DNA of 63,581 bases, counting the filler, from Candidatus Omnitrophota bacterium (GTDB lineage Bacteria; Omnitrophota; Gorgyraeia; JAGLLT01): assembly GCA_023140385.1 (NCBI GenBank). It is 4 parts of 4 records of this genome, joined end to end, with 100 filler letters (N's around TTAATTAATTAA, not from the genome) between each part and the next. Parts side by side here need not be neighbours in the genome. Positions count along the whole stretch, not along the records: positions 1 to 30,470 come from JAGLLT010000016.1; 3 more parts are not named here. One strand, given 5' to 3'. Both the position numbers and the translations under genes were made by a program. Shown in pieces: positions 11,613 to 31,304 of this stretch. The notes beneath the pieces were generated by a model. That model ran no database searches and was not told the origin of the DNA. It saw only the letters and a list, made by a program, of their open reading frames with translations. Numbering within the stretch: the first letter of the stretch is position 1; each line of letters starts with the position of its first letter.

Positions 11613-11652
11613 AAAAAGCTCTGACCCACCTAGTATTTTTTAAAAAAAATGC

Positions 11653-11681
11653 TTGACAAAATAATAGGTATATGTTAGGCT
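11653..11681 (+). promoter_or_regulatory. Sigma70-type promoter of the DUF3793-flavodoxin-pilin operon
   Basis: TTGACA (11653-11658), 17-nt spacer ending TGT, TAGGCT (11676-11681). Confidence 0.75.
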
Positions 11682-11690
11682 TGTCTAACA
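11673..11690. promoter_or_regulatory. Putative DtxR/MntR-family operator 1
   Basis: Palindrome TGTTAG-GCTTGT-CTAACA overlapping the -10; same TTAG-N6-CTAA geometry as SirR/MntR boxes. Confidence 0.78.
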
Positions 11691-11735
11691 AATAAAGGAT
11701 TGACTAAAATTGAGGGCTATTTTTTTTGTTTTGAA

Positions 11736-11753
11736 TGTTAGACGTATCTAATA
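11736..11753. promoter_or_regulatory. Putative DtxR/MntR-family operator 2
   Basis: TGTTAG-ACGTAT-CTAATA, 63 nt downstream of operator 1, in the 5' UTR. Confidence 0.68.
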
Positions 11754-11784
11754 TAGTTTTATTTGCCAAACAAAAGGAATAAAA

Positions 11785-12450
11785 ATGGTGCCGGTATTGG
11801 GATCTGTAGAAAAAGAGAAGCGGCAAGATTGTTTACTGAAATATCTTATGGTAAGACTTGCCGCAATTTTAATGAAACTTAAGCCTTCCTGTTTACTTTG
11901 TCTATGTAACTGCGAAAAATCAGGCGGTGGGGATTACTACGATTTATGGAAAGAGCAAAAAGTCGGCATAGCAAGAAAACTCAAAATTTCATTTAAGGAA
12001 CTGAAAAATACCTCTTGGGGAAAACAAGTGCTTTTTTATAATCCGGAAATTCTCTTTGATACAGTTACACAGCCGGAAAATTATATTTTTCTTAAAAAAT
12101 TTGGTTATTCATCCTGTAAAAACACAAAAGACTATTTAGATACGTTGAAGAAACGTTTTTGCGCCTTTGATAACAGCAATCCTCTCTTTCCTCATGAGAT
12201 AGGTATATTTTTAGGTTATCCCTTAAAAGACGTAAAAGGTTTTATAGAAAAGGGAAGTTTGCCTTTAACTGGAATGGGCCGCTGGCAGGTATTTGGTGAG
12301 CCGGAAGAGTCAAGACGGCTTATGCAAATGCGCGATAAAGCGGAAAAGGTATTCTTGAACCTTATAAAAAACGGAAGAAATCCCGCGTTACTTATAGAGC
12401 GCTTAAGCGTACATTTTAGAGAAATGAGTAATTTAATTACTGTTAATTAA
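11785..12450 (+). CDS. DUF3793 family protein
   Basis: LKPSCL, FPHEIGIFLGYPLKDVKGFI, GRWQVFG; next to a flavodoxin. Confidence 0.85.
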   Translation: MVPVLGSVEKEKRQDCLLKYLMVRLAAILMKLKPSCLLCLCNCEKSGGGDYYDLWKEQKVGIARKLKISFKELKNTSWGKQVLFYNPEILFDTVTQPENYIFLKKFGYSSCKNTKDYLDTLKKRFCAFDNSNPLFPHEIGIFLGYPLKDVKGFIEKGSLPLTGMGRWQVFGEPEESRRLMQMRDKAEKVFLNLIKNGRNPALLIERLSVHFREMSNLITVN

Positions 12451-12468
12451 GCATAAAAAGGGAAGAAA

Positions 12469-12906
12469 ATGACAAAAGCAATTATTGTTTATGGCAGTAC
12501 AACAGGAAACACCGAGACCTTATCTAAATCTGTAGGAGAAGGATTGAAGGATTTAGGAGTAGAGGTGTTGGTTAAGAACGCGGCGCAGGTAACTCCGGAA
12601 GAATTAAAAGATTATGACGGAATTATATTAGGTTGTTCGACCTGGGGAGACGGTGAATTGCAGGATGATTTTGTTTCATTTGAAGAAGAGATGGGAAAAA
12701 TAAGACTTGATGGAAAAAAAGCCGCCTGCTTTGGCCCCGGAGATAGTATGTATCCTCAATTTTGCAAAGCCATTGATATTTTAGAAGATAAATTGAAGGA
12801 ATGCGGAGCAGAAATCATTATGGATTCTTTAAAGATTGACGGAGACGTGGAGTCTGAACTTGAAAAGGTGAAAGATTGGGGGAAGGAAATAGCAGGGAAA
12901 CTGTAA
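12469..12906 (+). CDS. Short-chain flavodoxin
   Basis: YGSTTGNTE, GCSTWGDGELQ, FGPGDSMYPQFC. Confidence 0.95.
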   Translation: MTKAIIVYGSTTGNTETLSKSVGEGLKDLGVEVLVKNAAQVTPEELKDYDGIILGCSTWGDGELQDDFVSFEEEMGKIRLDGKKAACFGPGDSMYPQFCKAIDILEDKLKECGAEIIMDSLKIDGDVESELEKVKDWGKEIAGKL

Positions 12907-13103
12907 TGATAAAGAAAATTTCAACAAATAAAGAAGTTAAGGCTAAAATTTCAGAACTTTATGATGAGGTATTTAAACACGATGGCTATGGTGAGATTAA
13001 AGTAGATATTCGTATTTTGCGCCGTGGGCAGAAGGAAGTAATCATTCACTGCGGCAAACAGTACCGATTTGTAGTGGGTTTTAACGCAGAAGGCGGAAGA
13101 TAG
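12906..13103 (+). CDS. Small conserved-looking hypothetical protein (65 aa)
   Basis: ATG overlaps the flavodoxin stop (TAATG); sequence HDGYGEIKVDIRILRRGQKEVIIHCGKQYRFVV. Confidence 0.7.
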   Translation: MIKKISTNKEVKAKISELYDEVFKHDGYGEIKVDIRILRRGQKEVIIHCGKQYRFVVGFNAEGGR

Positions 13104-13282
13104 AAAACAGAAAATAAATTTTTCTATCTTTTAAAAAAAAGGAGGTGATGCGAAAAGAAGAAAATTTGAATCCTGTCAGTGTGATGCTGAAGGAATAACT
13201 TAAAATTTTTGGAAGTTAATAAATATACGCAAGAAGGACTTAGCGGGTAAGTATCTTGCGGTAATTAAGGGAGAAAAAAGAA

Positions 13283-14275
13283 ATGAATAAGCGTAGAAAA
13301 AAAGCGCAAGCGGGTTTTACCCTGCTGGAAATCCTGGTGGTACTTATGATTATGGGATTTCTTTTGGCAATGGTAGCGCCTAAGTTGTTAGGCGTCTTTC
13401 AGGATTCGGAGGATACCATTTGCGACACCAACATCAAGGATAGCAAAAAGTATGTCTCGCTCTTTGAGATACAGTATAGCAAACTGCCTGACAAGATGAT
13501 GGCGCCTGCTTATTTGGATACTGCCGGTGCCTGGTATGGCCCGACAGAGGAAAATGTGGCCGCGGATGGTAATGAGGTGTTTACAGCTGCCATTTTAGAG
13601 AGGCTTCGTTTAGCAAAGCATGTTTTGAATCAGAATGAAATTGACGAGATAGTAAACGATCTTGGAATTCGCGAGGTAGTAGTGTTGAATAACCCGGATG
13701 ATATTCAGGCGGTAGCTAAGAACGATATTTATGGCGCCGCGCTTCCTGCAACCGGTACAACCGAGGATTCACAATTTAAGCTAGTAACTCTTGGAAGTAT
13801 TGCTACTGCGACCCTGCCGATGATTGGCGGAGGTGACGCTGTTGGCGGCGGCGCAGGCTGGGCAAATAATACTGACTGGGATGCTGTAGGTGAGAATATC
13901 GCTGACCCGGAATGGGCCTACAGGCTTATTTTGGGAATTGGTCCTGACAGTGAGCTTATGCACAGGATTATTGCCGCCGAAGGTACCTGCCCAAGCTTTG
14001 AGCGGGTAGCTGCTGACGATACTATGTGGGGTTGGTATGTAGTAGTACTTCCCCGTTTGCAGGCAACCGTTGACAGCCTTACCGCTGTTCCCGGTACTGT
14101 GCTTGAGAATGTGACCTGCTGGGCAGATTCAGCTGATGTTACATCACAGAGAAAGACATTTGATTTAACCTCTGTGGATGAGGAGTACAAGAGAGCGTCC
14201 TTTGATATCTTCTGTCCGGAAGGCCACAGGTATCCTGAGGTAGTAGAGTTTTGGGGGATTGAGAGCATTAATTAA
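13283..14275 (+). CDS. Large acidic prepilin-type protein (candidate major pilin)
   Basis: Class III signal KKAQAG|FTLLEILVVL with Glu5; Asp/Glu-rich mature part ending CPEGH; followed by strong hairpins. Confidence 0.85.
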   Translation: MNKRRKKAQAGFTLLEILVVLMIMGFLLAMVAPKLLGVFQDSEDTICDTNIKDSKKYVSLFEIQYSKLPDKMMAPAYLDTAGAWYGPTEENVAADGNEVFTAAILERLRLAKHVLNQNEIDEIVNDLGIREVVVLNNPDDIQAVAKNDIYGAALPATGTTEDSQFKLVTLGSIATATLPMIGGGDAVGGGAGWANNTDWDAVGENIADPEWAYRLILGIGPDSELMHRIIAAEGTCPSFERVAADDTMWGWYVVVLPRLQATVDSLTAVPGTVLENVTCWADSADVTSQRKTFDLTSVDEEYKRASFDIFCPEGHRYPEVVEFWGIESIN

Positions 14276-14298
14276 TCATCCCAAGCTCCATTAGTAAA

Positions 14299-14365
14299 TT
14301 GAGAAGGGGGCAGGGGTATTTGCTCCCTTTTCAACTAAAATGCATCCCGATGAAATAATCGGGAT
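14299..14365 (+). terminator. Two stem-loops after the first pilin gene (partial terminator or mRNA stabiliser)
   Basis: TTGAGAAGGGGGCA...TGCTCCCTTTTCAA (14299-14334) and ATCCCGAT-GAAATA-ATCGGGAT (14344-14365). Confidence 0.6.
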
Positions 14366-14465
14366 TTCGCTCAGTAGTTAAATTATGGTGTTCAAAAATG
14401 AAAAATGAAGAGTTAAAAATTAATAGTAGTTATTTAAGCCTGCAGTTTGCAGATAGGAACGTGAG

Positions 14466-15509
14466 GTGCGAAACGTGAGACGTAAATTTTCAAGTTATAT
14501 CTTATGTTCTTGCACGCTTATGTTCTTATACCTTGTGCACTTGCCTGTGCCCACTTGTGCCCTTGAGGGTATTGGAGTATGCACTAATGCTCTTGCGAAT
14601 GAGCGCTCAATTGCCATAATTCAGATTTACAATCAAAAGGGTAAGGTGATTGGCAAGGAAGCAGGTGTTTTTATATCCGAAGACGAAGTGCTAACACATT
14701 ATTACGTATTTTCCGGTGTGGAAAGAGCGCTTTTGAAGTCAGAAGGCAAAGAATTTGAAATAAAGGGGATTTGCGGAAGGAATACAGAGAAGAAGTTACT
14801 AAAGATAAAAATTGGCGGAAATGGATTTAAAAAGGCGGATTTTGCCAAAGAGATAAGAGAAAACCAGGAAGTATTTATAAGACTGCCTGAAGGGGGGGCT
14901 CTAAAAGGGAAAATTGTTTCTATAAAAGATAGGATAAAAATAGAAACAGATTCTCAAATGCCAAAGATAAGAGGGTTGCCTGTTTTTAATAAAGATGGGC
15001 AGGTTTTGGGGATTATTGAGTTTTTCATTCGTGATAAGAATTATGTTTATGCTATCCCTGCTTTAGAGGGAATTTCTTTTGAAGACACAGGCCTTTTAAA
15101 TATAAAAGAATGGAAGGAAAAAAGAACTGCGGAATGGATGGAGAGTGATACAGGAAAAAGACAGATAATCGTTTATCTTATGGGAATAGGTGAATATGAA
15201 AAAGCAATTATAAAGTTAAAAGAGCTGATTAAAGAGCATCCTGAGGAAGAAGAAGTATATTTTAAACTCGGTGTTTGTTACGGAAAATCAGAAAGATGCA
15301 GAGAGGCGATAGAGGCCTATAAGAAATATAATTCGCTTTCACCTGATGATTTTAAAGCCCATTATAACCTTGGGATTTTATATATAAGTATGGCAGATAT
15401 AAAAACAGCAAAAAAGGAATATGAGTTTTTAAAGGGATTTAATTCAAAAGAAGCTATCGTGCTTTCAGAGCGTTTACTCAAATATATTGAGAAGGGAGAA
15501 AACCCGTGA
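14466..15509 (+). CDS. Exported protein with a degenerate trypsin-like domain and C-terminal TPRs
   Basis: GVFIS..VLTHYYV and GLPVFNKDGQVLGI echo trypsin-like motifs; TPR motifs YFKLGVCY and AHYNLGILY. Confidence 0.65.
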   Translation: MRNVRRKFSSYILCSCTLMFLYLVHLPVPTCALEGIGVCTNALANERSIAIIQIYNQKGKVIGKEAGVFISEDEVLTHYYVFSGVERALLKSEGKEFEIKGICGRNTEKKLLKIKIGGNGFKKADFAKEIRENQEVFIRLPEGGALKGKIVSIKDRIKIETDSQMPKIRGLPVFNKDGQVLGIIEFFIRDKNYVYAIPALEGISFEDTGLLNIKEWKEKRTAEWMESDTGKRQIIVYLMGIGEYEKAIIKLKELIKEHPEEEEVYFKLGVCYGKSERCREAIEAYKKYNSLSPDDFKAHYNLGILYISMADIKTAKKEYEFLKGFNSKEAIVLSERLLKYIEKGENP

Positions 15510-16402
15510 GTAAGAAAGGTTTTACCCTTCTTGAAGTTCTGGTAGTTCTTATGATTTTGGGGTTTTTGACAGCAATGGTTGCAGGCCACCTTTCCCGCAT
15601 TAAAGGAGAAGCGGCTATTGTTATAGCGCTTAATGAAATGAAGGACATTAAAGAGGCAATAAGAGACAGATTTTATCCGGACTTAGGCCTTATTCCTGAA
15701 GATTTAGGCCCGGATGGTTTTGCTGATCATTTAGGTCCGAATGGTATACCTGATGATGGAGATGAGATTTTTGATGCGAAACCCGAATTTTCTGTTAAGT
15801 TTCTTTGTCTTAAGGACGATGGTATTGCTGGTGATGAGTATAATGAGATGCTTGTTTTCTTGACAGAGTATGGAAAAGCCAGCTTAATAGACTGGGATAA
15901 ATATAGTTATAAGGGTTGGCGTGGGCCATATATGGAGCAGGAAGTAAGCCATGATTATGATGGTTTAGTAGGGGCGGGGACAGATTATTGGCCAATTATT
16001 GTTAATCCCTGGGCTGATTTATGGGAGGATAAAGCTCAGGAGGAGGAGAAGAAGCAGGAGGTTGGTTGGCGGGCACGTGCTGATGCTTTCCGAGAAAAGA
16101 AATGCTACCGCATCTTTGGCGGGCAGGATAAAAATTTAGTTCAGATTGTTTGTTATGGAGCTGATGGTGAAGCGGATTGTGACAAGGTTGTAGGAACGGA
16201 TGGGAATACGTATGTTTGTATTGAAATGCATACATCAGCAGCCGCAAATCACCCTGTAAGCGGTATAGATTGGGCTGATTTTTGGGCTTTGGACAATACA
16301 CAGACAGGAAATGTTTGGGCAGCAGGGATGGATTATGAAAGCTTTGCTGGTGATGACTTAGTAATGTTTATTTTTGGTACAGGGCCGATTAGGAGACCGT
16401 GA
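15506..16402 (+). CDS. Prepilin-type (GspG-like) protein
   Basis: MSKKG|FTLLEVLVVL; GWRGPY, NPW, CYGADG and terminal GDD resemble GspG C-terminal motifs. Confidence 0.85.
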   Translation: MSKKGFTLLEVLVVLMILGFLTAMVAGHLSRIKGEAAIVIALNEMKDIKEAIRDRFYPDLGLIPEDLGPDGFADHLGPNGIPDDGDEIFDAKPEFSVKFLCLKDDGIAGDEYNEMLVFLTEYGKASLIDWDKYSYKGWRGPYMEQEVSHDYDGLVGAGTDYWPIIVNPWADLWEDKAQEEEKKQEVGWRARADAFREKKCYRIFGGQDKNLVQIVCYGADGEADCDKVVGTDGNTYVCIEMHTSAAANHPVSGIDWADFWALDNTQTGNVWAAGMDYESFAGDDLVMFIFGTGPIRRP

Positions 16403-17301
16403 AAAAATTAAAAATGCAAAATTCAAAATGCAAAATTAAATTAACCAAACGAGGGTTTTCTCTCATTGAATTACTTGTGGTTTTGGCTATTATGGGGTTT
16501 TTTGTGGCTATGATGACACAGGTTTTTACCAAAGGTGATGATCAGCGGCGGTTTGATGAGACAAGGATAAGGATGGAGGAGATTAAAAAGGCAATTTTAG
16601 GCAGTGAAGGCGCCTATGCTCACGGTCAGCGGCAGTTTGCTGGATACGCGGCGGATATGGGGGGCTTGCCACTGCTTGATGATGCTTTAGATGATGGTGT
16701 TGCTACCAATCAGCCGGAGGGGCTTTGGATAGTTGACCTTGATCATGGCCCAAATCCGGATTTACCCACTTGGGGATATCAAGCAGTTTCAAGGATATGG
16801 ATGGGTTGGAGAGGGCCTTATATTGAAGAACCAACTTTGAGATCGGGTGAAGTTTTGGGACAGGAAAAATTAAGAGATGGCTGGGGAAACCCGTTTGTTT
16901 TTGATAATACAGCAAGCCCCGGTGATTTAATTGTAACAAGCCCCGGCGCGAATGGAGCAATAAATGCCATGGATACGGGATTTGATGAAGATATAATATT
17001 AACAATAAAACTAACTGAATATATGGCTCCTGTAGCAGGGAGAGTAGATGGAGGGGTAACAGATGTTGAAATCTATTATCCCATGTTCGATGGAATGGAT
17101 ACTGATGGTGATGGCTCGGATTTAACAGAAAGTTGGACAATCTCAGGTTTAAGTGATGGGGATTATTTTCGTTTTGAGAGCACAGTTCCTAACACAGATA
17201 TTCCAATTGGCGTAAGGAGTATTCAGGTCACAGGAGGATCTGGGGAGCTTTACATTTTTACAATAGAACCCACTGGAAATTGGATAGGAACACTCAATTG
17301 A
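16399..17301 (+). CDS. Prepilin-type (GspG-like) protein
   Basis: KRG|FSLIELLVVL; GWRGPY, DGWGNPF, SPGANG, DEDI. Confidence 0.85.
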   Translation: MKKLKMQNSKCKIKLTKRGFSLIELLVVLAIMGFFVAMMTQVFTKGDDQRRFDETRIRMEEIKKAILGSEGAYAHGQRQFAGYAADMGGLPLLDDALDDGVATNQPEGLWIVDLDHGPNPDLPTWGYQAVSRIWMGWRGPYIEEPTLRSGEVLGQEKLRDGWGNPFVFDNTASPGDLIVTSPGANGAINAMDTGFDEDIILTIKLTEYMAPVAGRVDGGVTDVEIYYPMFDGMDTDGDGSDLTESWTISGLSDGDYFRFESTVPNTDIPIGVRSIQVTGGSGELYIFTIEPTGNWIGTLN

Positions 17302-17319
17302 GAACTTGGAGCGTGAAGT

Positions 17320-18204
17320 ATGAAACGTGAAAAAGGTATTATTCTTTTAATGATGCTGGCGATGATTTCTTCGCTTGCGATTGTAATTATGATTTGTGCT
17401 TTTGTGTTAAGTCATGAAGTGAATAAAGATGAGAGGCATGATATTACCCGGCAAAGAATGTTGGAAGTAAAACGAGCCCTTATCGGCAGGTTGGCCGATG
17501 TTTCAGGTGGAGAGGATATTATTTCCTGTGATGGGTTTATAAGTGATTTTGGGGAGCCGATAGATACACCGGTTAATTTTATTGATAGGTTACTCAACGA
17601 ACAGGATCCGGCTGTCGGGCCGGATATTTGGGTGGATTGGCATTATGATTCACAGCCCTTACCTGAATTCTGGGCCGGCTATAGAGTTGCGGCACCTAAT
17701 GACGGCTGTTATTTAAAGGTTCCGCCTGCTCAACCAAATCCTACAAATGAATTTTTAGATGGTTGGGGATTTCCGATTGAAGTGGTATTTGTTGGAGGTG
17801 TTGGCGGTAATACGATAGATATTATCAGCCGTGGCAGTGATGGACAGCCCAACGCGGTAAACCCTGGAAGTTATGATGAAGACATTATAAATACGTTTTA
17901 CTGGAAGAGGCCTCAAGTGGATGTATCAGTAAAAAATACTGTTGCCGCGGGAGCAAATCTGAATGTAGAACTAATTTATCCCCAGCGGGGTAATGTTCAA
18001 TCGGAATTACAGAATTACAATTTTCTCGCAGGCGAAACTCATATATTTAGTTTTACCAATGGTGGAAATGGAATTCCGGTAGGTTTAAGAAAGGTTGTTA
18101 TTCGCGATGCTGGCGCGGGTAATGTGGTGAAAATAATTAGAATGCTCTGTCTCACTTCTGGCAGTGGAACGTATATAATGGAGCAAATAGAATATTCCGG
18201 GTAA
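17320..18204 (+). CDS. Minor pilin-like protein lacking Glu5 (PilX/GspK-type N-terminus)
   Basis: MKREKG|IILLMML; DGWGFP, SRGSDG and DEDI shared with the preceding paralog. Confidence 0.72.
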   Translation: MKREKGIILLMMLAMISSLAIVIMICAFVLSHEVNKDERHDITRQRMLEVKRALIGRLADVSGGEDIISCDGFISDFGEPIDTPVNFIDRLLNEQDPAVGPDIWVDWHYDSQPLPEFWAGYRVAAPNDGCYLKVPPAQPNPTNEFLDGWGFPIEVVFVGGVGGNTIDIISRGSDGQPNAVNPGSYDEDIINTFYWKRPQVDVSVKNTVAAGANLNVELIYPQRGNVQSELQNYNFLAGETHIFSFTNGGNGIPVGLRKVVIRDAGAGNVVKIIRMLCLTSGSGTYIMEQIEYSG

Positions 18205-18244
18205 AATATTACTTGTGGCTTGAAGCGTGTAGCGGAGTTAAATT

Positions 18245-19687
18245 ATGCTAAACAAACTCAAAAACTTATTTTCATATTTCAAAAAAAACGAAATTCTTGC
18301 CATTGAGCTTGGTAGAGATGTTATCAGGGGAGTGGTTGTTAAAAAAGAGGGCGAGAAGGTAGCTATTCTGACAAAGGCAGAGGTTGTCACAAGTCACAAG
18401 TTTACCAATTACCATGAAGATATTGACAGAGTTCTGGAAAAATTAGGACGTTACCCTAAGCGGGTAGTATTAGTTAGTCCGGAAGTGAAGTTTTTAACAG
18501 GTGAATTGCCTATACCCGCGAATACAAAACTGTCTTCAGGTAAATTATCTGAAGCGGTAAAGTGGGAAGCTCAAGCCTATCTCGATTTTTCTATATCTGA
18601 GGGCCTTTTTGGATATCAGTTGCAGGACAATAAATACTCAAGCGGAAAAGCTGTACCCGTTTTAATAACGGCAATATCTAAAGGGACCTATGGACGGCTG
18701 GCTGATATTTGTAAAAGATGCCATTTGAATTTGGAGGCTGTTTATGCCAAAGAGAACGCGTTCGCGTATTCTCTTAACCGTTTTTCAGGGGCAAAAAAAA
18801 GCGTTATTCTCAATTTAGAACAAAATTTAATAGGCGGGGCGCTTATAAATAGCGGTCATCCGATTGTCTTTCAGACTGCTCCTCTTGATGCTGTTGAGAG
18901 ATTAGTTTCTGATTTGATATCAGTGGCCGGAGGAGTAGATAAGGTGATTATTGCCGGTAGTCAGGGAGGATATGTTGAAAAAGTTATTGATAAACTAAGA
19001 GGCCTTATGCTATCAGTTAGGCTATGGAGGCCTCAAGATGATATTTTAGGGTTTCAGACCAAAAATTTATCTGGGATTAGTTCACAATTTGCCTCTTGCG
19101 CGGGCGCGGCTTTACAGGAATTAAAAGTCACAAGTAAAGGCGAATTAGGCATTGATGATAGAGTAGCTTTAAATGTACGATTTAAGTTAAGCGCCCATAT
19201 TCTGCCTTTGGTAATAGTCGGCGTAGTTCTCGCAGGTTTTTTAGTACACTATCTTTTTATAAAATCTTCCTTTTGGCGATATTCTTCAGTTGTTAAAAAA
19301 CTTGAAATAGAAAAGAGAACGTATGAAAATAATCTTTCAGAACTAAAAAACATAAAGTCTCAGATAAGCAGCAGCTATAAGAAAAAGAACTATATCGAAA
19401 CGGTTCTACCTGCGCGCAACAAGCGTTTGCTCAACTTATTTGATGGTATAGCCGGAGAAATTCCTTATGATGTTATATTAGACAGGATAATTCAGGATGA
19501 GAGCGATGTCTTTTTACTTGAGGGTTCAGGGCTTTCGGCCGGCTCTATTACTACGTTTGTAGGACAATTGGAACATCTTAAGGTAACTCAGGAGGCAAAG
19601 CTCCAGTCTATAAGTGAGAAAAAGACCGGCGCTGAAGATACCGATATGTTTTTGTATCAATTTAGAATAAAAGTAGTTCTAAAATAG
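18245..19687 (+). CDS. PilM-PilN fusion (GspL-like architecture)
   Basis: N-terminal actin-like PilM features (LAIELG, EAVKWEA, VIIAG), one TM, coiled coil, PilN-like end (IPYDVILDRI, LEGSG, FRIKVVLK). Confidence 0.72.
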   Translation: MLNKLKNLFSYFKKNEILAIELGRDVIRGVVVKKEGEKVAILTKAEVVTSHKFTNYHEDIDRVLEKLGRYPKRVVLVSPEVKFLTGELPIPANTKLSSGKLSEAVKWEAQAYLDFSISEGLFGYQLQDNKYSSGKAVPVLITAISKGTYGRLADICKRCHLNLEAVYAKENAFAYSLNRFSGAKKSVILNLEQNLIGGALINSGHPIVFQTAPLDAVERLVSDLISVAGGVDKVIIAGSQGGYVEKVIDKLRGLMLSVRLWRPQDDILGFQTKNLSGISSQFASCAGAALQELKVTSKGELGIDDRVALNVRFKLSAHILPLVIVGVVLAGFLVHYLFIKSSFWRYSSVVKKLEIEKRTYENNLSELKNIKSQISSSYKKKNYIETVLPARNKRLLNLFDGIAGEIPYDVILDRIIQDESDVFLLEGSGLSAGSITTFVGQLEHLKVTQEAKLQSISEKKTGAEDTDMFLYQFRIKVVLK

Positions 19688-19708
19688 CGCGCAAGGCGCG
19701 AGGATTGA

Positions 19709-20275: not shown

Positions 20276-20311
20276 CAATATGTAAGAAGCGGAATAAGTG
20301 AGGTAGAGAGA

Positions 20312-22869: not shown

Positions 22870-23922
22870 ATGGATATATTTGAACTTTTACGTTTAACCG
22901 CTAAAGAACAAGCGTCTGATTTACACCTTACGCCTAACAGTCCGCCTCTTTTGCGTGTTCATGGAGAGTTGGTCGCGGTTAAAGATAAAAAGTTATCCTC
23001 TGAAAATACCAGGGAGATGATTTTTCGGATACTTTCATCAGAGCAAAGGGAAGTGTTTGAAAAGAAGCGTTCCATTGATTTGGCTTATAGCCTTGAGGGC
23101 GCGGGGCGTTTTCGCATAAACGCCTATTATCAAAGGGGTTCAATAAGTATCGCCTTTCGTAATCTTCCCGATAAAATACTTAGCCTTACAGAGCTTGGTT
23201 TGCCTGAAAGCCTTCATCAGCTTTCTAATTTGCGGGATGGAATGGTCTTAGTTACCGGGCCTACCGGCTGCGGCAAAACCACTACCTTGGCAGCTCTTAT
23301 TGATATGATAAATCAGACCCGCGCTTGTCATATTATTACGATAGAAGACCCTATTGAGTATCTGCATACCCACAAAAAGGGCATTGTTAACCAAAGAGAG
23401 CTTTACACCGACATTGACTCCTTTGCTGAAGCAATGCGTTATGCTCTTCGGGAAGACCCGGATGTTATTTTGGTAGGTGAGATGCGGGATTTAGATACTA
23501 TGCGCACAGCTATTATGGCGGCTGAGACGGGGCATCTGGTTTTTTCTACTCTGCATACCCGGGATACGGTATCGTCCATTGACCGCATACTGGGAGTTTT
23601 CCCGCCTGTTGAGCAGCAGCACGTTCGGCAGCAGCTTTCTGAGACTTTAAAGGCGGTAGTCTCGCAAAGGTTGTTAAAGTGCGCGGATGGAAATAGCCGC
23701 GTTCCCACAGTAGAGCTGATGATGGTTACTAAAGCAATAAGTAACTTGATACGACTAGGTAAAACCGAACAGATATACTCAGCTATTGAGACAGGTATGA
23801 ATTTCGGTATGCAAACAATGGAGCAGTCATTAGTGGCTCTTTATCAGGAGGGTAAGATTGATAAGGAGACCGCTTTTAAAACGGCAAAAAATGTAAAACT
23901 TATTGAACGTAGGATTACTTGA
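22870..23922 (+). CDS. pilT: Type IV pilus retraction ATPase
   Basis: ASDLHL, GRFRINAY, GPTGCGKTTT, TIEDPIE, ALREDPDVILVGEMRD, AETGHLVFSTLHT, GMQTM. Confidence 0.92.
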   Translation: MDIFELLRLTAKEQASDLHLTPNSPPLLRVHGELVAVKDKKLSSENTREMIFRILSSEQREVFEKKRSIDLAYSLEGAGRFRINAYYQRGSISIAFRNLPDKILSLTELGLPESLHQLSNLRDGMVLVTGPTGCGKTTTLAALIDMINQTRACHIITIEDPIEYLHTHKKGIVNQRELYTDIDSFAEAMRYALREDPDVILVGEMRDLDTMRTAIMAAETGHLVFSTLHTRDTVSSIDRILGVFPPVEQQHVRQQLSETLKAVVSQRLLKCADGNSRVPTVELMMVTKAISNLIRLGKTEQIYSAIETGMNFGMQTMEQSLVALYQEGKIDKETAFKTAKNVKLIERRIT

Positions 23923-23935
23923 GAGAAAATTAGAG

Positions 23936-25552
23936 ATGCTTGGTGAGATATTAGTAGAAAAGAAAATTATTGATGAAGAACAGTTAAATGAAGCCTTGAA
24001 GGCCCAGACAAAGTATAGAGAGCTTTTGGGTCAAACGCTGGTCAAATTAGGGCACTGCATGGAAGAAGATGTGGCGCGAGCTATAGCTGAAATTTATAAA
24101 CTACCTTATATAGAATTGGAAGAGATGGATATAGAATCCGGAGCCAGTCAGTCTATTCCAGCCAATCTTGCTATTAAGTATAATATTATTCCTGTAAAAA
24201 TAGATGGAGATACCCTATGCCTTGCCTGCGCGAAGCCTTTAAGCCCCCAAATAGCCGCTAACTTACAAAGGTTAACCAATAAACAGATTGCTTTTTATAT
24301 TGGCGCGGATACTACTATTGGATCTTTGCTGAAAAAGCATTATAGGGTCAATTCAGCATCTGTGGAGGAAGAATTAGCGGAAGAAACTATTGATCAATCC
24401 GTTATTGATATTTTGAATGACTATATCTCCAGGGCATTAAGGCAAAGGGCCTCAGACATTCATTTTGAACCTCAGGAAACAAAAGTGCGGATAAGGTTTA
24501 GAATAGATGGGGTATTAAGAGAGATAGGTTTTTTGCCGGCCGGCCTTGCCCCTCCCGTTATTTCCAGAATTAAGATTCTTTCAGGATTAAACATAGCTGA
24601 AAAGCGCGCTCCCCAGGACGGGAGTTTTGTCTTTGAATATATGGATGAATCAATTGATATTCGGGTTTCCACTTTACCTAATGTCAATGGCGAGAAGGCG
24701 GTCTTAAGGCTTCTTCCTTCTAAAAGAAGGATAATTTCTTTAGAGTCGCTGGGTATAGAAAAGGATACTTTGGAGATATTCAAGTCGCTTATTAAAAGGC
24801 CGCACGGTATTATTCTTATTACAGGGCCGACGGGCAGTGGCAAATCTACTACTTTATACGCTTCACTTTTACTTATTCGTTCTGCCGGTATCAATATTAC
24901 CACCATTGAGGATCCTGTAGAGTATCGCATTGAAGGTATTACCCAGACGCAGGTGGATCATGTTAACAAAATTACTTTTCCTAAGGCGCTCAGGCATATT
25001 TTGCGTCAGGATCCTGATGTTATTATGGTAGGGGAAATTCGTGACAAGGAAACGGCGGATATTGCTTTAAGGGCCGCCCTCACCGGCCATCTTGTTTTCG
25101 CTACTTTACATACCAATGACGCTTCCAGCGCGCTTACCCGCTTAATTGATATGGGTTGTGAACCGTTTTTTGTCAGTTCTACTGTTTGCGCTATTGCAGC
25201 TCAACGTCTGGTAAGGATTAATTGTGAATTTTGTAAGGAGCCCTTTAGGCCGACGCGGGATGAACTCAGGATGTGTGGGTTAGAAGATATTGAGCAAAGC
25301 AGGCAATGGTTTCACTCGCCTGGCTGCCGGCGCTGTCAAAAAACAGGATATAGGGGGCGCACGGGAATATTTGAACTGCTTAAAGTAGACAACCTGATTC
25401 AGAAGGAGATTATAAAGAATTCTTCTGTGGATAAGATTAAGGAGACTGCTGTATCTTGTGGCATGCGTACACTGCGTCAGGATGCCTTTTTGAAGGTTGA
25501 ACGCGGCCTGACTTCATTTGAGGAGGCGTTGAGAGTAACGGTGCTGGATTAA
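23936..25552 (+). CDS. pilB: Assembly ATPase (PilB/GspE family)
   Basis: MshEN-like LGEILV...LGQTLV, ASDIHFEP, GPTGSGKSTTLY, LRQDPD, CxxC..CxxC zinc motif. Confidence 0.92.
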   Translation: MLGEILVEKKIIDEEQLNEALKAQTKYRELLGQTLVKLGHCMEEDVARAIAEIYKLPYIELEEMDIESGASQSIPANLAIKYNIIPVKIDGDTLCLACAKPLSPQIAANLQRLTNKQIAFYIGADTTIGSLLKKHYRVNSASVEEELAEETIDQSVIDILNDYISRALRQRASDIHFEPQETKVRIRFRIDGVLREIGFLPAGLAPPVISRIKILSGLNIAEKRAPQDGSFVFEYMDESIDIRVSTLPNVNGEKAVLRLLPSKRRIISLESLGIEKDTLEIFKSLIKRPHGIILITGPTGSGKSTTLYASLLLIRSAGINITTIEDPVEYRIEGITQTQVDHVNKITFPKALRHILRQDPDVIMVGEIRDKETADIALRAALTGHLVFATLHTNDASSALTRLIDMGCEPFFVSSTVCAIAAQRLVRINCEFCKEPFRPTRDELRMCGLEDIEQSRQWFHSPGCRRCQKTGYRGRTGIFELLKVDNLIQKEIIKNSSVDKIKETAVSCGMRTLRQDAFLKVERGLTSFEEALRVTVLD

Positions 25553-25555
25553 AAA

Positions 25556-26788
25556 ATGGCAAAGTTTTTCTATACTACCATAGGCAGTAACGGGAAAGAA
25601 GTTTCGGGGACGGTTGAAGCTTCTGACATTAATATTGCGGCCGGTAATCTTCGCGGCCAGGGAAGGGCTATAACTTCGTTAAAAGAAATCGGTGGTACGT
25701 CAAAGGAGAATGAAGAGTTAATTCGTGCTTCGTCATTTGATTGTTTTAGTTTTATTTGGAGTTCCGATATCGTTATAATGTTTCGCCAGCTTTCCGTTCT
25801 TATTACTGCCGGCGTTACTTTAGTTAGTTCTTTACAGATACTTCAGAGGCAGACGAGGAAAAGAAAATTAAAACGGCTTCTCAGTCAAGTTTTACATAGT
25901 ATTGAAGAAGGTTCAACCTTCGCTGACGCTTTAAAAAAACACCCCGGAGTTTTTTCTTTTTTTATTACCAATATGATTGAAAGCGGAGAAGTTGGGGGAA
26001 CATTGGATATAATCCTGGAGCGTATTGCTGACTATCTTGAAGAGCAAGCAGCGTTTCGCACACAAATTATCACCAGTTTTATTTATCCGGCTATTGTAAT
26101 CGTGATGAGTATTATTATGGTGAGTTTTTTGGTTGGCTTTGTTATCCCTCAGTTTATGCCCTTTATAAAAGCGCGAGGCGGAAAACTGCCATGGAATACA
26201 CAGTTTTTAATGGATAGCACGCGCTGGTTAAGGAATTATTGGAAGTATATTGTTGGCGGCGCGGGAGCGGGATTTTTAGGATTGTATTTTTTAAGCAGGT
26301 TTGAAGGTGTAAAATACTGGATAGATAGAATTAAAATGAGGCTTCCTATTGTGGGTCCTATTTTTGTTTATTCGGTAGTGGTTCAATTTTCCAGAAATTT
26401 AGCTTCTTTATTAAGCAGTGGTGTCAGTATATTGGAATCGCTGCGTACAGTTCGTAATACTCTTGGCAATTGCGCGGCAATGCGGGTGATGGATATTATG
26501 GAAAGACGTGTTACCAGAGGCGAGAGTCTATCCGCGCCCGTTCGAGATGCTGTCCACGTTTTTCCTCCTATGGTGGCTGAGATGATAGCCGTAGGAGAAG
26601 AAACAGGCGGACTGGATGAAGCTTTAAATTTAACCGCCCAAATCCACGAGAAGTTGTTACAAACCTATGTTAAGCGTATGAATTCCTTAATTGAACCCGT
26701 GCTTATTCTTACATTAGGAGGTATAGTCGCGTTTGTGGCATGGAGTCTAATTGCCGGTATTTTAACTATGTACGGAATTTATAGATAA
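25556..26788 (+). CDS. pilC: Inner-membrane platform protein (PilC/GspF family)
   Basis: FRQLSVLITAGV, GEVGGTL, YPAIV, GEETGGLD, LIEP. Confidence 0.92.
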   Translation: MAKFFYTTIGSNGKEVSGTVEASDINIAAGNLRGQGRAITSLKEIGGTSKENEELIRASSFDCFSFIWSSDIVIMFRQLSVLITAGVTLVSSLQILQRQTRKRKLKRLLSQVLHSIEEGSTFADALKKHPGVFSFFITNMIESGEVGGTLDIILERIADYLEEQAAFRTQIITSFIYPAIVIVMSIIMVSFLVGFVIPQFMPFIKARGGKLPWNTQFLMDSTRWLRNYWKYIVGGAGAGFLGLYFLSRFEGVKYWIDRIKMRLPIVGPIFVYSVVVQFSRNLASLLSSGVSILESLRTVRNTLGNCAAMRVMDIMERRVTRGESLSAPVRDAVHVFPPMVAEMIAVGEETGGLDEALNLTAQIHEKLLQTYVKRMNSLIEPVLILTLGGIVAFVAWSLIAGILTMYGIYR

Positions 26789-26922
26789 GGTGTAAAGAAG
26801 CGAGGATAAAATAACTTAAAGTTGAAGAATCGGCTGAAGTCACTAATTTAGTTGTAAAAAAGGCGTAAGTTGACACATAAGGTTGAACCTAAAGTGTAAA
26901 GTTATAATCTACTACATAGAAC

Positions 26923-26960
26923 TTGACAAAGAAGTGTGAATATGTTAGTGTTATCTAACA
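26923..26960 (+). promoter_or_regulatory. Promoter of dtxR-feoAAB with overlapping operator 3
   Basis: TTGACA (26923-26928), 17 nt, TAGTGT; palindrome TGTTAG-TGTTAT-CTAACA (26943-26960); same layout as the 11653 promoter. Confidence 0.8.
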
Positions 26961-26988
26961 AAGAAAGGTAAATTTACTATTAAAGGAG

Positions 26989-27504
26989 TTGCAAATGCAT
27001 ATTGAAAATGTTGGGGAAAAATTAAGTTCTAATATGGAAGATTATCTGGAGGCTATTGCTCTTATAGAAAAAGATAAGGGTGTTGCCAGGGTTAAGGATA
27101 TAAGCCGTTTAATGAAGGTAAAGACACCGAGTGTTACCAGCGCTCTTAACGTTTTGGTCGATAAGGGCCTTGTTGAACATGAACGTTACGGTTACGCGGA
27201 GCTTACCAAAGACGGAAAACGGATAGCTCAGGATGTGCTCAAGCGGCATAAGATGTTGACTAAATTTTTATCCAGTATTTTAAAGATTGACCCCCAGGTA
27301 GCCGCAGGCGACGCCTGTAAAATGGAGCACGCTCTTAGCCCTGAAACATACAAGAAATTGAGTACGTTTGTTGAGTTTGTAGAAACCGGCTCTGAAGTTG
27401 ACAGGCCGTTGTGGCTTAAAGGATTTGATCATTATCTTAAGACAGGTAAACGGGTACAGTGTAAAAATAAGCAAGCGCTGAAAAAAGTTAAAAGCAGGAA
27501 GTAA
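26989..27504 (+). CDS. DtxR/MntR-family metal-dependent repressor
   Basis: MEDYLEAI, ARVKDIS..KTPSVT HTH, RHKMLTKFL, DACKMEH metal ligands. Confidence 0.92.
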   Translation: MQMHIENVGEKLSSNMEDYLEAIALIEKDKGVARVKDISRLMKVKTPSVTSALNVLVDKGLVEHERYGYAELTKDGKRIAQDVLKRHKMLTKFLSSILKIDPQVAAGDACKMEHALSPETYKKLSTFVEFVETGSEVDRPLWLKGFDHYLKTGKRVQCKNKQALKKVKSRK

Positions 27505-27525
27505 TTTTTGAAAGGGAGAAGCGGA

Positions 27526-27759
27526 ATGAGTGAAAAGACGTTGGATAAATTAAGGCCTGGGGAAAAAGGCCGGGTGGTAAAGGTATCAGGGGGGAATGAT
27601 ATCAGCCGGCGGCTTTTGGCGATGGGGGTTATCAGAGGAACCGGGATAGAGGTAGAGAGGGTCGCCCCTTTAGGTGATCCTATTGAAGTAAAGATTAAAA
27701 GTTATCACTTATCTTTTCGTAAAGAGGAAGCGGCTAATATTATAGTGGAGGTTGATTAA
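27526..27759 (+). CDS. feoA: Ferrous iron transport protein A
   Basis: RRLLAMGVIRG, VAPLGDPIEV, LSFRKEEA. Confidence 0.92.
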   Translation: MSEKTLDKLRPGEKGRVVKVSGGNDISRRLLAMGVIRGTGIEVERVAPLGDPIEVKIKSYHLSFRKEEAANIIVEVD

Positions 27760-27760
27760 A

Positions 27761-27997
27761 ATGCCCGGGGCTGTTTCGCCGTTATTAATGGTTTCGCCCG
27801 GCAAAGAGGTAATTCTGGTCTCTTTGGACGGAGGGCTAAATTTTCGGAGAAGGCTTACCGATATGGGCTTGGCGGAAGGCGTGAGGTTTAAAGTTCTGCA
27901 TTCACAGGGGCGGGGACAGTGTATCGTCCGGGTGGGCAATACCAGGTTGGCCATAGGCTGTGGTATGGCGCAAAAAATTATGGTAAGAGAGACATAA
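27761..27997 (+). CDS. feoA: Second FeoA family protein
   Basis: RRLTDMGLAEG, RLAIGCGMAQKIMV. Confidence 0.88.
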   Translation: MPGAVSPLLMVSPGKEVILVSLDGGLNFRRRLTDMGLAEGVRFKVLHSQGRGQCIVRVGNTRLAIGCGMAQKIMVRET

Positions 27998-27999
27998 TA

Positions 28000-30084
28000 A
28001 TGATAAAGAAAATAACAATTGCTTTAGCGGGCAACCCTAACTGCGGCAAAAGCTCGATTTTTAACAATCTTACAGGGGCGCGCCAGCATGTAAGCAATTA
28101 TCCGGGTGTAACGGTTGAGAAAAAAGAGGGCAGGTTAAAGTATAAAGATTATGAAATAAATGTTATCGATTTACCCGGAACATACAGCCTATCGGCCTAT
28201 TCCGAAGATGAAATTATTGCCAGAAATTTCATTGTACAAAGAGAGGCTGATATTATCGTCAATATTATCGACTCCTCTAATCTGGAAAGAAACTTGTATC
28301 TAACAACACAATTAATGGAATTGGACGTGCCTCTCATATTAGCTATGAATATGAGTGATATCGTTGAAAAAAAAGGCGAGCATATAGATTATTCTGAACT
28401 TTCAAAACTTTTGGGGCACCCGCTTATACCCACTGTAGGCAATAAAAATAAAGGAACCCAAAAGCTTTTGGAAACCATCATCGGAGTTTATGAAAAGAAG
28501 ATTGAGTTTGAGAAAGTTTACGTAAATTACGGAGCTGAGGTGTGGGAGGAGATAGATAAGATAAAAAAGATACTTATCAAAGATGAGGCCTTAATTAAGG
28601 CTTATCCTCTCAGATGGCTAATTATTAAACTTATAGAGGATGACCGGCTTGTTTTAGATGTTGTTGAGAAGTCGGCTGTTGGCGGGGAAGTCGTTGAACA
28701 GGCGGAAAAAAGCCGGAGACATCTAAAAGCGCATTTTGGCGATAGTACAGATGTCATTGTGGCTGAAAGAAGATATGGTTTTATAAGCGGCGCCTGCACT
28801 CAGTCGCTAAAGGTATCTGTTGAGGATAGGCACACTATATCCGATAAAATAGACAGGATTACTTTAAACAGATTTGCCGGCGTGCCTATTTTTGCCGTTG
28901 TCATGTATCTTGTTTTTAAATTTACCTTTGTTTTATCAGGGCCCGTTGTGGGATGGTGTGAAGGTTTTTTTAATTGGCTGGCGGGAATTGTTGGCGGCCT
29001 AATTCCCCAGGTGTTACTGCGGTCTCTTGTAGTTGACGGTATTATTGGGGGAGTCGGCGGCGTGTTGGGATTTTTTCCGCTTATTCTGTTTATGTTTTTT
29101 GCTATAGCTTTTTTTGAAGATTCCGGTTATATGGCCAGAGCCGCTTTTGTAATGGATAAGCTGATGAGTAAATTCGGGCTTCACGGTAAGTCTTTTCTAC
29201 CGCTGATGATATCGACCAACGGATGTGCCGTTCCCGGGATTATGGCCACCAGGACGCTGGAAAACAAAAGAGACCGATTGATTACTATGATGATTACTCC
29301 CTTTATGATTTGCGGGGCAAAGCTCCCTATATTCGCTCTTTTTATTGGAGCTTTTTTTCCGGCTGAATATAGCGCTAATATTATGTTTTTAATGTACGTT
29401 CTAAGTATTATTATTGCCTTTGGCTGCGCCAAGCTTCTGAAGACATTAGTTTTTAAAGGTGAAAGCGCCCACTTTGTAATGGAACTCCCGCCGTACCGCA
29501 TTCCGACATTTAAGGGCATCCTGCTTAAGATGTGGGAAAGAGGCTGGATGTACATAAAAAAGGCGGGAACGATTATCATTCTTGTTTCGGTAATTATCTG
29601 GGCGGGATTTACCTTTCCTCAGAATCCTGTTATAGAAGAAGGAAAGAGTTTGACGGAGGATGAAGTAGCGGCCTTGCAGATGGAACAAAGTTATGCCGGA
29701 AGATTTGGCCACGGCATTGAACCTGTTATTAAACCTCTGGGGTTGGACTGGAGAGCCGGCGTTGCTCTGACAGCAGGCTTTGCCGCCAAAGAGGTAGTGG
29801 TCAGCACTTACGGGACTATGTACAGTTTGGGGGAGGTTGACCCTGAAGAGGCAGGCTCTTTAAAGGAATCTATCGGAAAGGATGCTTCATGGAATCCGCT
29901 TAAGGCGATGTCTTTTCTCATCTTTTCCCTTATTTACATTCCCTGTGTGGTAGTGATGGCGGTTTTTCATAGAGAAGCGGGTTCTTCCTGGAAGTGGACC
30001 TCATTTATGATTTTTTGGACAACTGCCTTAGCCTGGACGGCATCTTTTATTGTTTATCAGGCAGGTTTGCTTTTCGGCCTGTAG
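28000..30084 (+). CDS. feoB: Ferrous iron transporter B
   Basis: GNPNCGKS, NYPGVTVE, DLPGTYSL, NMSD, EDSGYMAR, FVMELPPY, AKEVVV, YIPC. Confidence 0.96.
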   Translation: MIKKITIALAGNPNCGKSSIFNNLTGARQHVSNYPGVTVEKKEGRLKYKDYEINVIDLPGTYSLSAYSEDEIIARNFIVQREADIIVNIIDSSNLERNLYLTTQLMELDVPLILAMNMSDIVEKKGEHIDYSELSKLLGHPLIPTVGNKNKGTQKLLETIIGVYEKKIEFEKVYVNYGAEVWEEIDKIKKILIKDEALIKAYPLRWLIIKLIEDDRLVLDVVEKSAVGGEVVEQAEKSRRHLKAHFGDSTDVIVAERRYGFISGACTQSLKVSVEDRHTISDKIDRITLNRFAGVPIFAVVMYLVFKFTFVLSGPVVGWCEGFFNWLAGIVGGLIPQVLLRSLVVDGIIGGVGGVLGFFPLILFMFFAIAFFEDSGYMARAAFVMDKLMSKFGLHGKSFLPLMISTNGCAVPGIMATRTLENKRDRLITMMITPFMICGAKLPIFALFIGAFFPAEYSANIMFLMYVLSIIIAFGCAKLLKTLVFKGESAHFVMELPPYRIPTFKGILLKMWERGWMYIKKAGTIIILVSVIIWAGFTFPQNPVIEEGKSLTEDEVAALQMEQSYAGRFGHGIEPVIKPLGLDWRAGVALTAGFAAKEVVVSTYGTMYSLGEVDPEEAGSLKESIGKDASWNPLKAMSFLIFSLIYIPCVVVMAVFHREAGSSWKWTSFMIFWTTALAWTASFIVYQAGLLFGL

Positions 30085-30570: not shown

Positions 30571-31304
<734 letters not shown>

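Follow-up and report, generated by a model that had tools for sequence, protein, structure and literature searches.

Type IV filaments are known to serve motility, adhesion, DNA uptake and secretion. Type II secretion systems (T2SSs) normally lack a PilT-type retraction ATPase, and Hxc, a T2SS of phosphate limitation, is a precedent for a second, starvation-specific machine. Here we describe a filament gene cluster standing between iron-related operons on a 63,581-nucleotide (nt) stretch of DNA (the window) from Candidatus Omnitrophota bacterium (GCA_023140385.1), a member of a phylum of tiny, mostly uncultured bacteria. Links between type IV filaments and metal nutrition are few and indirect. 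Synechocystis PilA1 is reported to be linked to iron oxide use (PMC4144903) and to manganese acquisition (PMC5634550), and Legionella PilA2 aids growth at scarce metal, an effect that is independent of piliation (PMC13170364). Legionella is also reported to have a T2SS exoprotein under iron regulation (PMC11705809), and in Geobacter an atypical T2SS is required to secrete OmpB, a protein that takes part in the reduction of Fe(III) oxide (PMC3543383). PilA1 and PilA2 resemble what we propose below, each connecting a type IV pilin with growth when iron or manganese is in short supply, but they are the general pilins of their organisms and are encoded outside metal regulons, whereas the cluster described here encodes a dedicated second machine between box-bearing iron operons. 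A limited search of titles and abstract openings found no literature on an Omnitrophota filament cluster inside a DtxR regulon, although the idea may still be published. The locus provides a concrete case of a dedicated second filament built into a putative metal-starvation island and staying there through rearrangements, and it offers a testable filament role in the nutrient-limitation response of Omnitrophota.

Two similar promoters around a filament cluster

The genome under study (G000; 1.50 Mb in 57 contigs, 92.7% complete) carries the locus on contig C8, which occupies positions 1–30470 of the window as one whole contig; the remainder consists of other contigs joined on, with the N's beginning at 30470 (264 N in total). 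The stretch is contained in DNA runs X1–X4 of one study, labelled cold seep metagenome. Genes were called from an open reading frame (ORF) listing combined with Pfam and NCBIfam searches, and promoters and terminators from a consensus scan. All listed genes lie on the plus strand (Table 1), in a co-oriented block where a two-box promoter is followed by DUF3793, flavodoxin, a small gene that we term small75, the 13.5-kb filament cluster, a one-box promoter, a dtxR/mntR-like gene and feoA-feoA-feoB. This is the order given in a preliminary description of the locus, except for the TPR gene, which follows the first of the four pilin genes and precedes the second rather than coming after them all. 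We propose that in this Omnitrophota lineage an accessory filament system of a widespread family has become part of a metal-starvation island under DtxR/MntR control, where flavodoxin/Feo and the filament would be derepressed together on metal depletion, an explanation on which our own judgement is evenly divided.

The DUF3793 and dtxR promoters are similar across approximately 45 nt, each consisting of TTGACA and then the palindrome TGTTAG-N6-CTAACA, which in the DUF3793 promoter recurs 63 nt further downstream. Four sites match this palindrome with at most one mismatch in the whole genome, and three of them (two perfect, one with a single mismatch) all fall within the two alike promoters that flank the cluster; the fourth, at C12:48669, lies inside a 1059-residue ORF and was taken as chance. 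In raw numbers the boxes are not exceptional: with up to two mismatches the window holds 5 matches against 2.24 expected, a count reached in 8 of 100 shuffles and not significant, and shuffled genomes contained 3–9 sites at up to one mismatch (approximate filter), similar to the real count. The operator argument therefore rests on promoter position and conservation. Both boxes of the DUF3793 promoter are kept in the related genomes G001 and G002, and in G003 the two-box promoter stands before dtxR; the dtxR box is kept in G001, and the same promoter–box design precedes dtxR in G382, G368, G006 and G039. The shared operator of the preliminary description thus holds for the DUF3793 and dtxR promoters but does not extend to the TonB-dependent receptor gene. 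That gene does lie directly upstream of the block, as described (and upstream of DUF3793 in G001 too), with no box in the operator scan; its start overlaps the end of a nicotinate phosphoribosyltransferase-like gene, at the stop codon.

The DtxR/MntR-family gene at the locus is the only one found in G000 (a single PF02742 match), and the one Fur-family gene of the genome lies away from the locus. Among the NCBIfam equivalogs the regulator scored best against MntR (83.8 vs a cut-off of 138) and lower against DtxR (33.6 vs 290), both scores falling below the cut-offs. Downstream of it, FeoA and a FeoB with G-domain, Gate and FeoB_C supply the defining parts of a Feo transporter. As in DtxR, IdeR and MntR regulons, a two-domain repressor would be autoregulated together with a metal importer, and a putative palindromic box overlaps the promoter of a flavodoxin operon. 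The half-site GTTAG/CTAAC matches the inner half of the classical DtxR box; the locus differs from those regulons in the 6-nt spacer of the box and in apparently mixed regulator residues, which by eye would be an MntR-like Asp at DtxR Met10 and a DtxR-like Cys at Cys102.

The filament machine, its pilins and small75

Judged by its family matches, T4aP/T2SS-like accessory filament machine is a fair name for the cluster at 13283–26788. With type IVa pili (T4aP) it shares short G|F..E prepilin leaders, PilN and PilO domains along with a PilM domain that scores below its cut-off, a secretin, an assembly ATPase and a platform protein of the PilB and PilC types, and a PilT above its cut-off. It differs from them in the fusion of PilM to PilN, in PilB, PilC and PilQ models that score below cut-off, in pilins of approximately 300–330 residues with GspG-like N-termini and a head matching no solved fold, and in the extra conserved cytoplasmic protein small75. 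Furthermore, contig C33 of G000 (35000–55000; L015) carries a second, canonical T4P cluster with PilB, PilT, PilB, PilC and pilins, which also holds a 555-residue PilM-N-like ORF and two secretin-like stretches. The single prepilin peptidase of G000 is encoded elsewhere than the cluster. Relatives have 3–9 secretin matches per approximately 1-Mb genome.

The likeness to T2SSs lies in the best scores of three components and in the set of one major and three minor pilin-like genes. The secretin scored best against GspD (160.5 vs a cut-off of 351.35), ahead of PilQ (TIGR02515, 136 vs 284.35); the platform protein reached 314.5 with GspF (cut-off 424), the PilC and GspF models scoring alike; and the pilins match GspG solely at the N-terminus (42 vs 88.85). 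PilB and GspE models scored alike for the assembly ATPase (TIGR02538, 540.3 vs 675.65; TIGR02533, 525.5 vs 630.25). All these scores, unlike that of PilT, are below the cut-offs, and the label of a type IV pilus/T2SS hybrid in the preliminary description is fair. The presence of PilT, the missed Gsp equivalog cut-offs and the lack of any GspC, GspL or GspM match in the Pfam and NCBIfam search of the cluster set it apart from T2SSs. As for the MSH pilus, the cluster PilB has the MshEN domain, and the secretin scored below the cut-off with the MshL model (TIGR02519, 93.9 vs 250.2).

Of the four pilin-like genes named in the preliminary description, three encode prepilins, whereas the fourth has no Pfam match and its product lacks Glu5. 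The proposed PilMN, PilO and PilP genes are borne out for PilN and PilO, which score above cut-offs, with PilM and PilN fused; the PilP-like ORF owes its name to position alone. TPR–secretin fusions occur among the secretin homologues (P0013 and P0039 in the series P0001–P0080); TPR orthologues 58–63% identical were found in G002 and at metagenome locus L034, and orthologues of the three further pilin-like genes in G382 and L034.

These features could also suit a starvation-induced T2SS-like exporter, in which a short pseudopilus drives a protein that scavenges metal or lyses host cells out through the secretin, and no long iron-binding, retractile fibre is made. The best scores with GspD, GspF and GspG would fit such a device, as would the DGWGxP-type motifs carried by the pilin-like genes and the PilM-PilN domain order, which presumably resembles the architecture of GspL. 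The Legionella and Geobacter cases cited above provide precedents. We nevertheless regard this exporter as unlikely: the cluster has a PilT-family ATPase above its curated cut-off, which T2SSs normally lack, all Gsp equivalog models fall below theirs, and the cluster holds no conserved cargo candidate, the TPR protein of G000, G002 and L034 being swapped for an omptin-like protein in G382.

Homologues of the probable major pilin numbered 337 at E ≤ 1e-5 among 4006 candidates. They include full-length proteins, 30–35% identical to it, from cultured Desulfonatronum, Desulfuromonas thiophila, Desulfomicrobium, Desulfoluna and Clostridium aceticum (organism names for homologues of the pilin and small75 are those given by their sources). 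The AlphaFold2 model of the pilin is confident (pLDDT 91), and a Foldseek search of its head against the PDB gave no match at E ≤ 0.001; the best matches in the wide VIA alignment were EpsG (Z 3.5, root-mean-square deviation 4.1, 85 aligned) and PulG (Z 3.3). Cys47, Cys236, Cys311 and His315 are conserved as C-C-C-H in 51 of 60 aligned homologues. All three cysteines are lost together in 6 of the 60 rows, the histidine being gone as well in 5 of these 6, and the G382 pilin is among the rows without the set. This pattern of joint conservation looks like a putative Cys3His metal site in an exported pilin.

The cluster looks modular. Its pilin (72% identical) and TPR protein (58%) are closest to those of L034, whose PilM-N is only 29% identical, and the pilin, which is unusually conserved, likewise shares 72% identity with that of a metagenome-assembled genome (MAG) named 'Deltaproteobacteria', for which PilM-PilN identity is just 29%. 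G382 is nearer in the machine (PilM-N approximately 40%, the 152-residue ORF 68%), with a different pilin head and the omptin-like gene in place of TPR.

The small75 protein belongs to a very conserved family, with 386 homologues at E ≤ 0.001 among 387 candidates, 53–88% identical, from Deltaproteobacteria, Aureabacteria, Chromatiaceae, Psychromonas, Ammonifex and Desulfothermobacter. Neither small75 nor its homologues contain a Pfam domain, NCBIfam gave no match to small75, and an ESM Atlas search returned unnamed clusters only. Thirteen positions, including one His and one Cys, are invariant across 38 aligned sequences. The AlphaFold2 model (pLDDT 87.6) consists of one helix and three strands (alpha-beta3) and finds weak fold matches to SRP9/14 (VIA Z 4.5; Foldseek SRP9 E 0.16, TM-score 0.61) and to double-stranded RNA-binding domains (dsRBDs; Z 3.6–3.7), and a profile search against PDB sequences found nothing below E 0.7; because the structural matches are weak, we name no fold. 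The gene lies directly before a pilin gene in G001, G002, G382, G368 and G436, and the small75 and pilin protein accessions are adjacent in a 'bacterium' MAG and 3 apart in the 'Deltaproteobacteria' MAG. This placement next to the same kind of pilin, seen in a number of phyla, marks small75 as part of the filament system.

As far as the homologues define it, the filament family is marked by small75, a GspG-like pilin of approximately 330 residues that has a large head and a putative Cys3His site, a fusion of PilM to PilN that resembles GspL and is accompanied by PilO, and a secretin with PilT, PilB (MshEN) and PilC. By the same homologues it is widespread beyond this locus, including in cultured Desulfobacterota. 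The preliminary description had called the system a candidate undescribed one; the pilin and small75 families are not confined to the locus. Genetics should be possible in its cultured carriers, which by source name include Desulfonatronum, Desulfuromonas, Desulfomicrobium and Clostridium aceticum.

Linkage to iron genes across Omnitrophota

The cluster is rare in the phylum. A secretin orthologue (E ≤ 1e-60) was present in 3 of 401 phylum genomes (G000, G002 and G382) and in 2 of 151 genomes of the order of G382 (G382 and G436). small75 was found in 4 of the 401 (the same three and G368, which is in the small75 list only) and, outside these hits, in G001 and G436. Among 40 class relatives, only G001 and G002 have PilM-PilN orthologues. 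G001, of the same genus as G000, has the same gene order over two stretches, one running from PilMN to feoB and the other from the TonB receptor gene to small75. In G002, of another genus, the cluster is spread over four short contigs and the gene order was deduced from contig ends; a GH3 gene lies upstream, and ZIP and FmdE-like genes stand between flavodoxin and small75. DUF3793 orthologues precede flavodoxin in both G001 and G002.

The linkage recurs, rearranged, in two further families. In G382 (another family, 4.1 Mb) the locus lies on one strand and begins [box]dtxR-[box]feoA-feoA-feoB-[box]-Zn-ribbon ORF-small ORF-flavodoxin-DUF2023-254-residue ORF-MotA/ExbB-like-DUF2149-FmdE-like-CobN-like-small75, continuing pilin-pilin-omptin-like-pilin-pilin-PilMN-PilO-152-residue ORF-secretin-PilT-PilB-PilC, with Fur and NicO/DUF1007 genes beyond. 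G368, a closed genome of a third family, reads [box]dtxR-[box]feoA-feoA-feoB-methyltransferase-Zn-ribbon ORF-small ORF-flavodoxin-DUF2023-tiny Cys-rich ORF-small75-pilins, then further genes up to PilB-PilC-157-residue ORF-secretin (30% identical)-PilT. The small75 cluster thus adjoins dtxR-feoAAB and flavodoxin in all five genomes that have both small75 and an orthologous feoB (G000, G001, G002, G382 and G368), in three arrangements and across three Omnitrophota families, a recurrence that, inside the phylum, speaks against the refutation named in the preliminary description, homologous pilin clusters unlinked to iron genes. By comparison, no filament gene was found near feoB in the fetched flanks, some cut by contig ends, of six feoB-bearing relatives without small75 (G003, G006, G011, G031, G037 and G039). 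The linkage has been kept through at least two rearrangements and a divergence of the secretin to 30% identity.

Iron genes are not the only company the family keeps. G436 and the metagenome contig L026 carry a sister cluster (secretin 52–53%, small75 57–58% identical) with a TIM-barrel gene upstream and, downstream, CobU-CobT-CobS, further cobalamin genes including CbiB and CobQ, and an ABC importer of FecCD/periplasmic-binding type. The link to iron genes in the preliminary description therefore stands for the five genomes above but not for this sister cluster. One could accordingly see the theme as uptake of metal-tetrapyrroles (haem or corrinoid), the filament serving capture of haem or cobalamin sources; this would also take in the CobN-like chelatase, MotA/ExbB-like and DUF2149 genes upstream of small75 in G382, and the TonB receptor, whose best models are those of B12 and haem receptors. 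We find this very improbable. The G000 and G368 loci contain no CobN or cobalamin genes, Fe(II) is indicated by the genes that do recur (feoAAB, dtxR and flavodoxin), and the receptor scores lie far below the cut-offs for a gene that has no operator.

Proposed control of the filament cluster and remaining features

In G000 the small75 ATG overlaps the flavodoxin stop (TAATG), so that small75 would be transcribed with flavodoxin unless a promoter lies inside the upstream gene. The consensus scan gave no promoter-like site in the gaps 13103–13283 and 14275–14466 and no plus-strand terminator in 13103–13283; its sole hairpin in the gap 14275–14466 is on the minus strand (14365–14344). Co-regulation of the filament with the metal genes is likely. 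We envisage that the sigma-70-type promoter with two DtxR-type boxes would drive DUF3793, flavodoxin and small75, and that the near-identical one-box promoter directly after pilC would drive dtxR-feoA-feoA-feoB. With Fe(II), and possibly Mn(II), in sufficient supply, the DtxR/MntR-like repressor would sit on the boxes; metal depletion would derepress both operons, whereupon flavodoxin would spare iron, Feo would import Fe(II) and small75 would be made. Read-through, perhaps tuned at the conserved pilin leader, could then raise filament gene expression, with cyclic di-GMP (c-di-GMP) as a further input, and the filament could hold on to a source of metal, such as a host cell or a mineral, and then retract, or it could export a scavenging factor in T2SS style. 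That the filament retrieves iron is conjecture.

A number of observations weigh against this scheme. No GTTAG-N6-CTAAC site with at most one mismatch lies in 11760–26940, nor is there a box (at most one mismatch) before the pilin or within the clusters of G001, G002, G382 and G368. Direct metal repression of the pilin promoter is not supported, and the phrase 'metal-repressed' in the preliminary description has to be given up as a direct finding; with no operator at the pilin or within the cluster of any genome examined, metal control would need read-through or small75. An AT-rich 13-bp hairpin after small75, where G001 and G382 have hairpins too, could terminate transcription. G000, G001, G002 and, in part, G382 share a conserved block of approximately 130 nt ahead of the pilin gene, which suggests separate control, and the consensus scan places a good promoter-like site at 20853–20880, before the secretin gene. 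The MshEN c-di-GMP motif of PilB, above its cut-off, would be a further, independent input. The regulator scores nearer MntR than DtxR, below cut-off, so Mn as well as Fe may be the metal sensed. G003, of the genus of G002, retains the GH3 gene (88% identical), the two-box promoter, the first approximately 13 codons of the small upstream ORF and a box-driven dtxR-feoAAB, with a clean deletion from DUF3793 to PilC (L016, G003:C3, 10705–10965); Feo can therefore do without the filament. The FeoB copies of the f1 genomes, G382, G368 and G039 form one clade (100/100 support), with G006 of a sister family outside it, so the three arrangements may share one island origin and are not fully independent samples; the island may have had a single origin and moved between lineages. 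Finally, no feo, dtxR or flavodoxin gene is in view near the sister cluster of G436 and L026, and feoB was not found in G436 (86% complete).

Many of these points would follow if the filament were a mere neighbour of the iron genes, an accessory pilus under its own leader or promoter and under c-di-GMP via PilB that travels with the iron island and on which metal has no effect. The missing operator, the hairpins after small75, the conserved pilin leader, the MshEN motif, the single FeoB clade (which would allow inheritance or transfer en bloc) and the dispensability of the block for Feo in G003 all speak for it. So does a survey of 80 metagenome loci of the wider secretin family, in which tblastn detected no feoB, feoA, dtxR, flavodoxin or DUF3793 and matched just a Fur-family gene at L034 and a TonB receptor at L041. 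However, none of these 80 loci gave a tblastn match to small75 at E ≤ 1, and they therefore barely probe the flank that bears the iron genes in G382 and G368. Moreover, small75 is locked to flavodoxin by TAATG in G000 and follows metal-related genes closely elsewhere (8 nt after the FmdE-like gene in G002, 21 nt after the CobN-like gene in G382), the linkage has outlived the rearrangements and secretin divergence described above, and the six feoB loci without small75 lack filament genes. Weighing both sides, we consider such independence possible, though on the doubtful side. At L034 itself, no metal-related gene was found in the 1.1 kb before the pilin, and Fur-family, NifX-like and DUF4198 genes occur 2–4 kb beyond PilC.

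Under the co-regulation that we favour, the pilin leader would be the place for tuning. A perfect anti-16S-like AAGGAGGTGA stands approximately 110–145 nt before the pilin ATG in G000, G002, G382, G368 and L034, and is present as well in G001, where the contig stops short of the ATG. A comparison of three sequences found double changes at 10 of the 25 predicted pairs; when six more distant sequences were used, the consensus shrank to −0.81 kcal/mol and the signal faded. We treat a structured pilin leader RNA as a lead suggested by these alignments. A riboswitch or other known RNA was set aside, as an Rfam search of 11000–30470 (E ≤ 1) returned 0 matches. A sigma-54 promoter was likewise rejected: a GG-N10-TTGC-like string occurs at approximately 13243–13258, a search of the genome (92.7% complete) found no Sigma54_DBD, and G002 has AG for GG. 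A leader peptide in the conserved block was discarded too, the short ORF not being conserved (ATG TGA in G001).

Joined together, the pilin site, small75 and the leader would allow a bolder picture, which strikes us as decidedly unlikely. The filament would be a metal-handling organelle with a metal or Fe-S site in each pilin, a PilT-powered retractile fibre, induced with Feo and flavodoxin, that captures metal from minerals or prey, or passes electrons to them, and reels the metal in; small75, with its invariant His and Cys and its SRP9/dsRBD-like alpha-beta3 fold (weak scores), would act as a switch linking the metal state of the cell to the leader RNA of the pilin gene.

Table 1. Features of the locus and of related loci (positions in the window unless a locus is named)
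Feature	Position	Strand	Evidence and remarks
TonB-dependent receptor	9768-11612	+	Pfam Plug, TonB_dep_Rec_b-barrel; best NCBIfam matches B12 and haem receptors, far below cut-off
DUF3793 promoter-operator	11653-11760	+	TTGACA 11653-11658; box 1 11673-11690 (TGTTAGGCTTGTCTAACA); box 2 11736-11753, 1 mismatch
DUF3793 protein	11785-12450	+	PF12672, 130 bits
Short-chain flavodoxin	12469-12906	+	TIGR01753, 157.5 bits vs cut-off 123; PF00258
small75	12906-13103	+	ORF; 65 residues, predicted cytoplasmic; conserved family without Pfam/NCBIfam match
Non-coding pilin leader	13137-13282	+	Conserved; three predicted hairpins; starts with AAGGAGGTGA
Probable major prepilin	13283-14275	+	330 residues; leader ends G|FTLLE; GspG-like N-terminus; large head
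Secreted TPR protein	14466-15509	+	Pfam TPR; candidate secretin-associated (pilotin-like) factor
Prepilin	15506-16402	+	N_methyl match
Prepilin	16399-17301	+	N_methyl match
Fourth pilin-like ORF	17320-18204	+	No Pfam match; class-III-like N-terminus without Glu5 (by eye)
PilM-PilN fusion	18245-19687	+	Pfam PilN 26.2 bits (cut-off 22.8); PilM_2 19.1 bits (below 27)
PilO	19709-20275	+	Pfam 37.6 bits (cut-off 22)
152-residue ORF	20312-20770	+	No family match; 'PilP-like' from position alone
Secretin	20902-22869	+	PF00263, 128 bits
PilT retraction ATPase	22870-23922	+	TIGR01420, 459.3 bits vs cut-off 319.1
PilB-type assembly ATPase with MshEN c-di-GMP motif	23903-25552	+	NF053729, 59.6 bits vs cut-off 38; MshEN Pfam 58.3 bits
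PilC/GspF platform protein	25556-26788	+	PilC and GspF models below cut-off
dtxR-feoAAB promoter-operator	26923-26960	+	TTGACA 26923-26928; box 26943-26960 (TGTTAGTGTTATCTAACA)
DtxR/MntR-family repressor	26989-27504	+	171 residues; PF01325, 55.4 bits (cut-off 26); PF02742, 63.6 bits (cut-off 27)
feoA	27508-27759	+	Pfam FeoA
feoA	27752-27997	+	Pfam FeoA
feoB	27919-30084	+	FeoB_N, Gate, FeoB_C, FeoB_Cyto; all domains above Pfam cut-offs
Terminator-like hairpin	30170-30194		After feoB
Sister-cluster flank	L026 12024-21148; L105 34-1619		CobU, CobT, CobS, CbiB, CobQ, CbiJ, FecCD-type ABC importer
66-82-residue Cys/His ORFs	L018 3121-3351; L019 2646-2894; L024 15554-15754; L110 16125-16298		

Upstream of the block, positions 1–9771 are mostly housekeeping: thiazole synthase, aspartate decarboxylase, a thioredoxin-reductase-like gene, deformylase, a GAF-HD protein, an AmmeMemoRadiSam radical-SAM enzyme, RseC-like and nicotinate phosphoribosyltransferase-like genes. 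The GAF and HD (HD_5) protein, at 5492–7222, is a possible cyclic-nucleotide phosphodiesterase; the PilB of the cluster bears the c-di-GMP motif. At the other end, the MreB-like ORF at 30523–31248 (241 residues against a 327-position profile) is truncated by a contig end and no neighbour of feoB, since the window switches contig at 30470. Among the relatives, a family of 66–82-residue Cys/His ORFs, missing in G000, precedes DUF3793 or flavodoxin in G002, G001, G382 and G368; just upstream of this small ORF, G382 and G368 have a Zn-ribbon-like ORF as well as a T-run hairpin.

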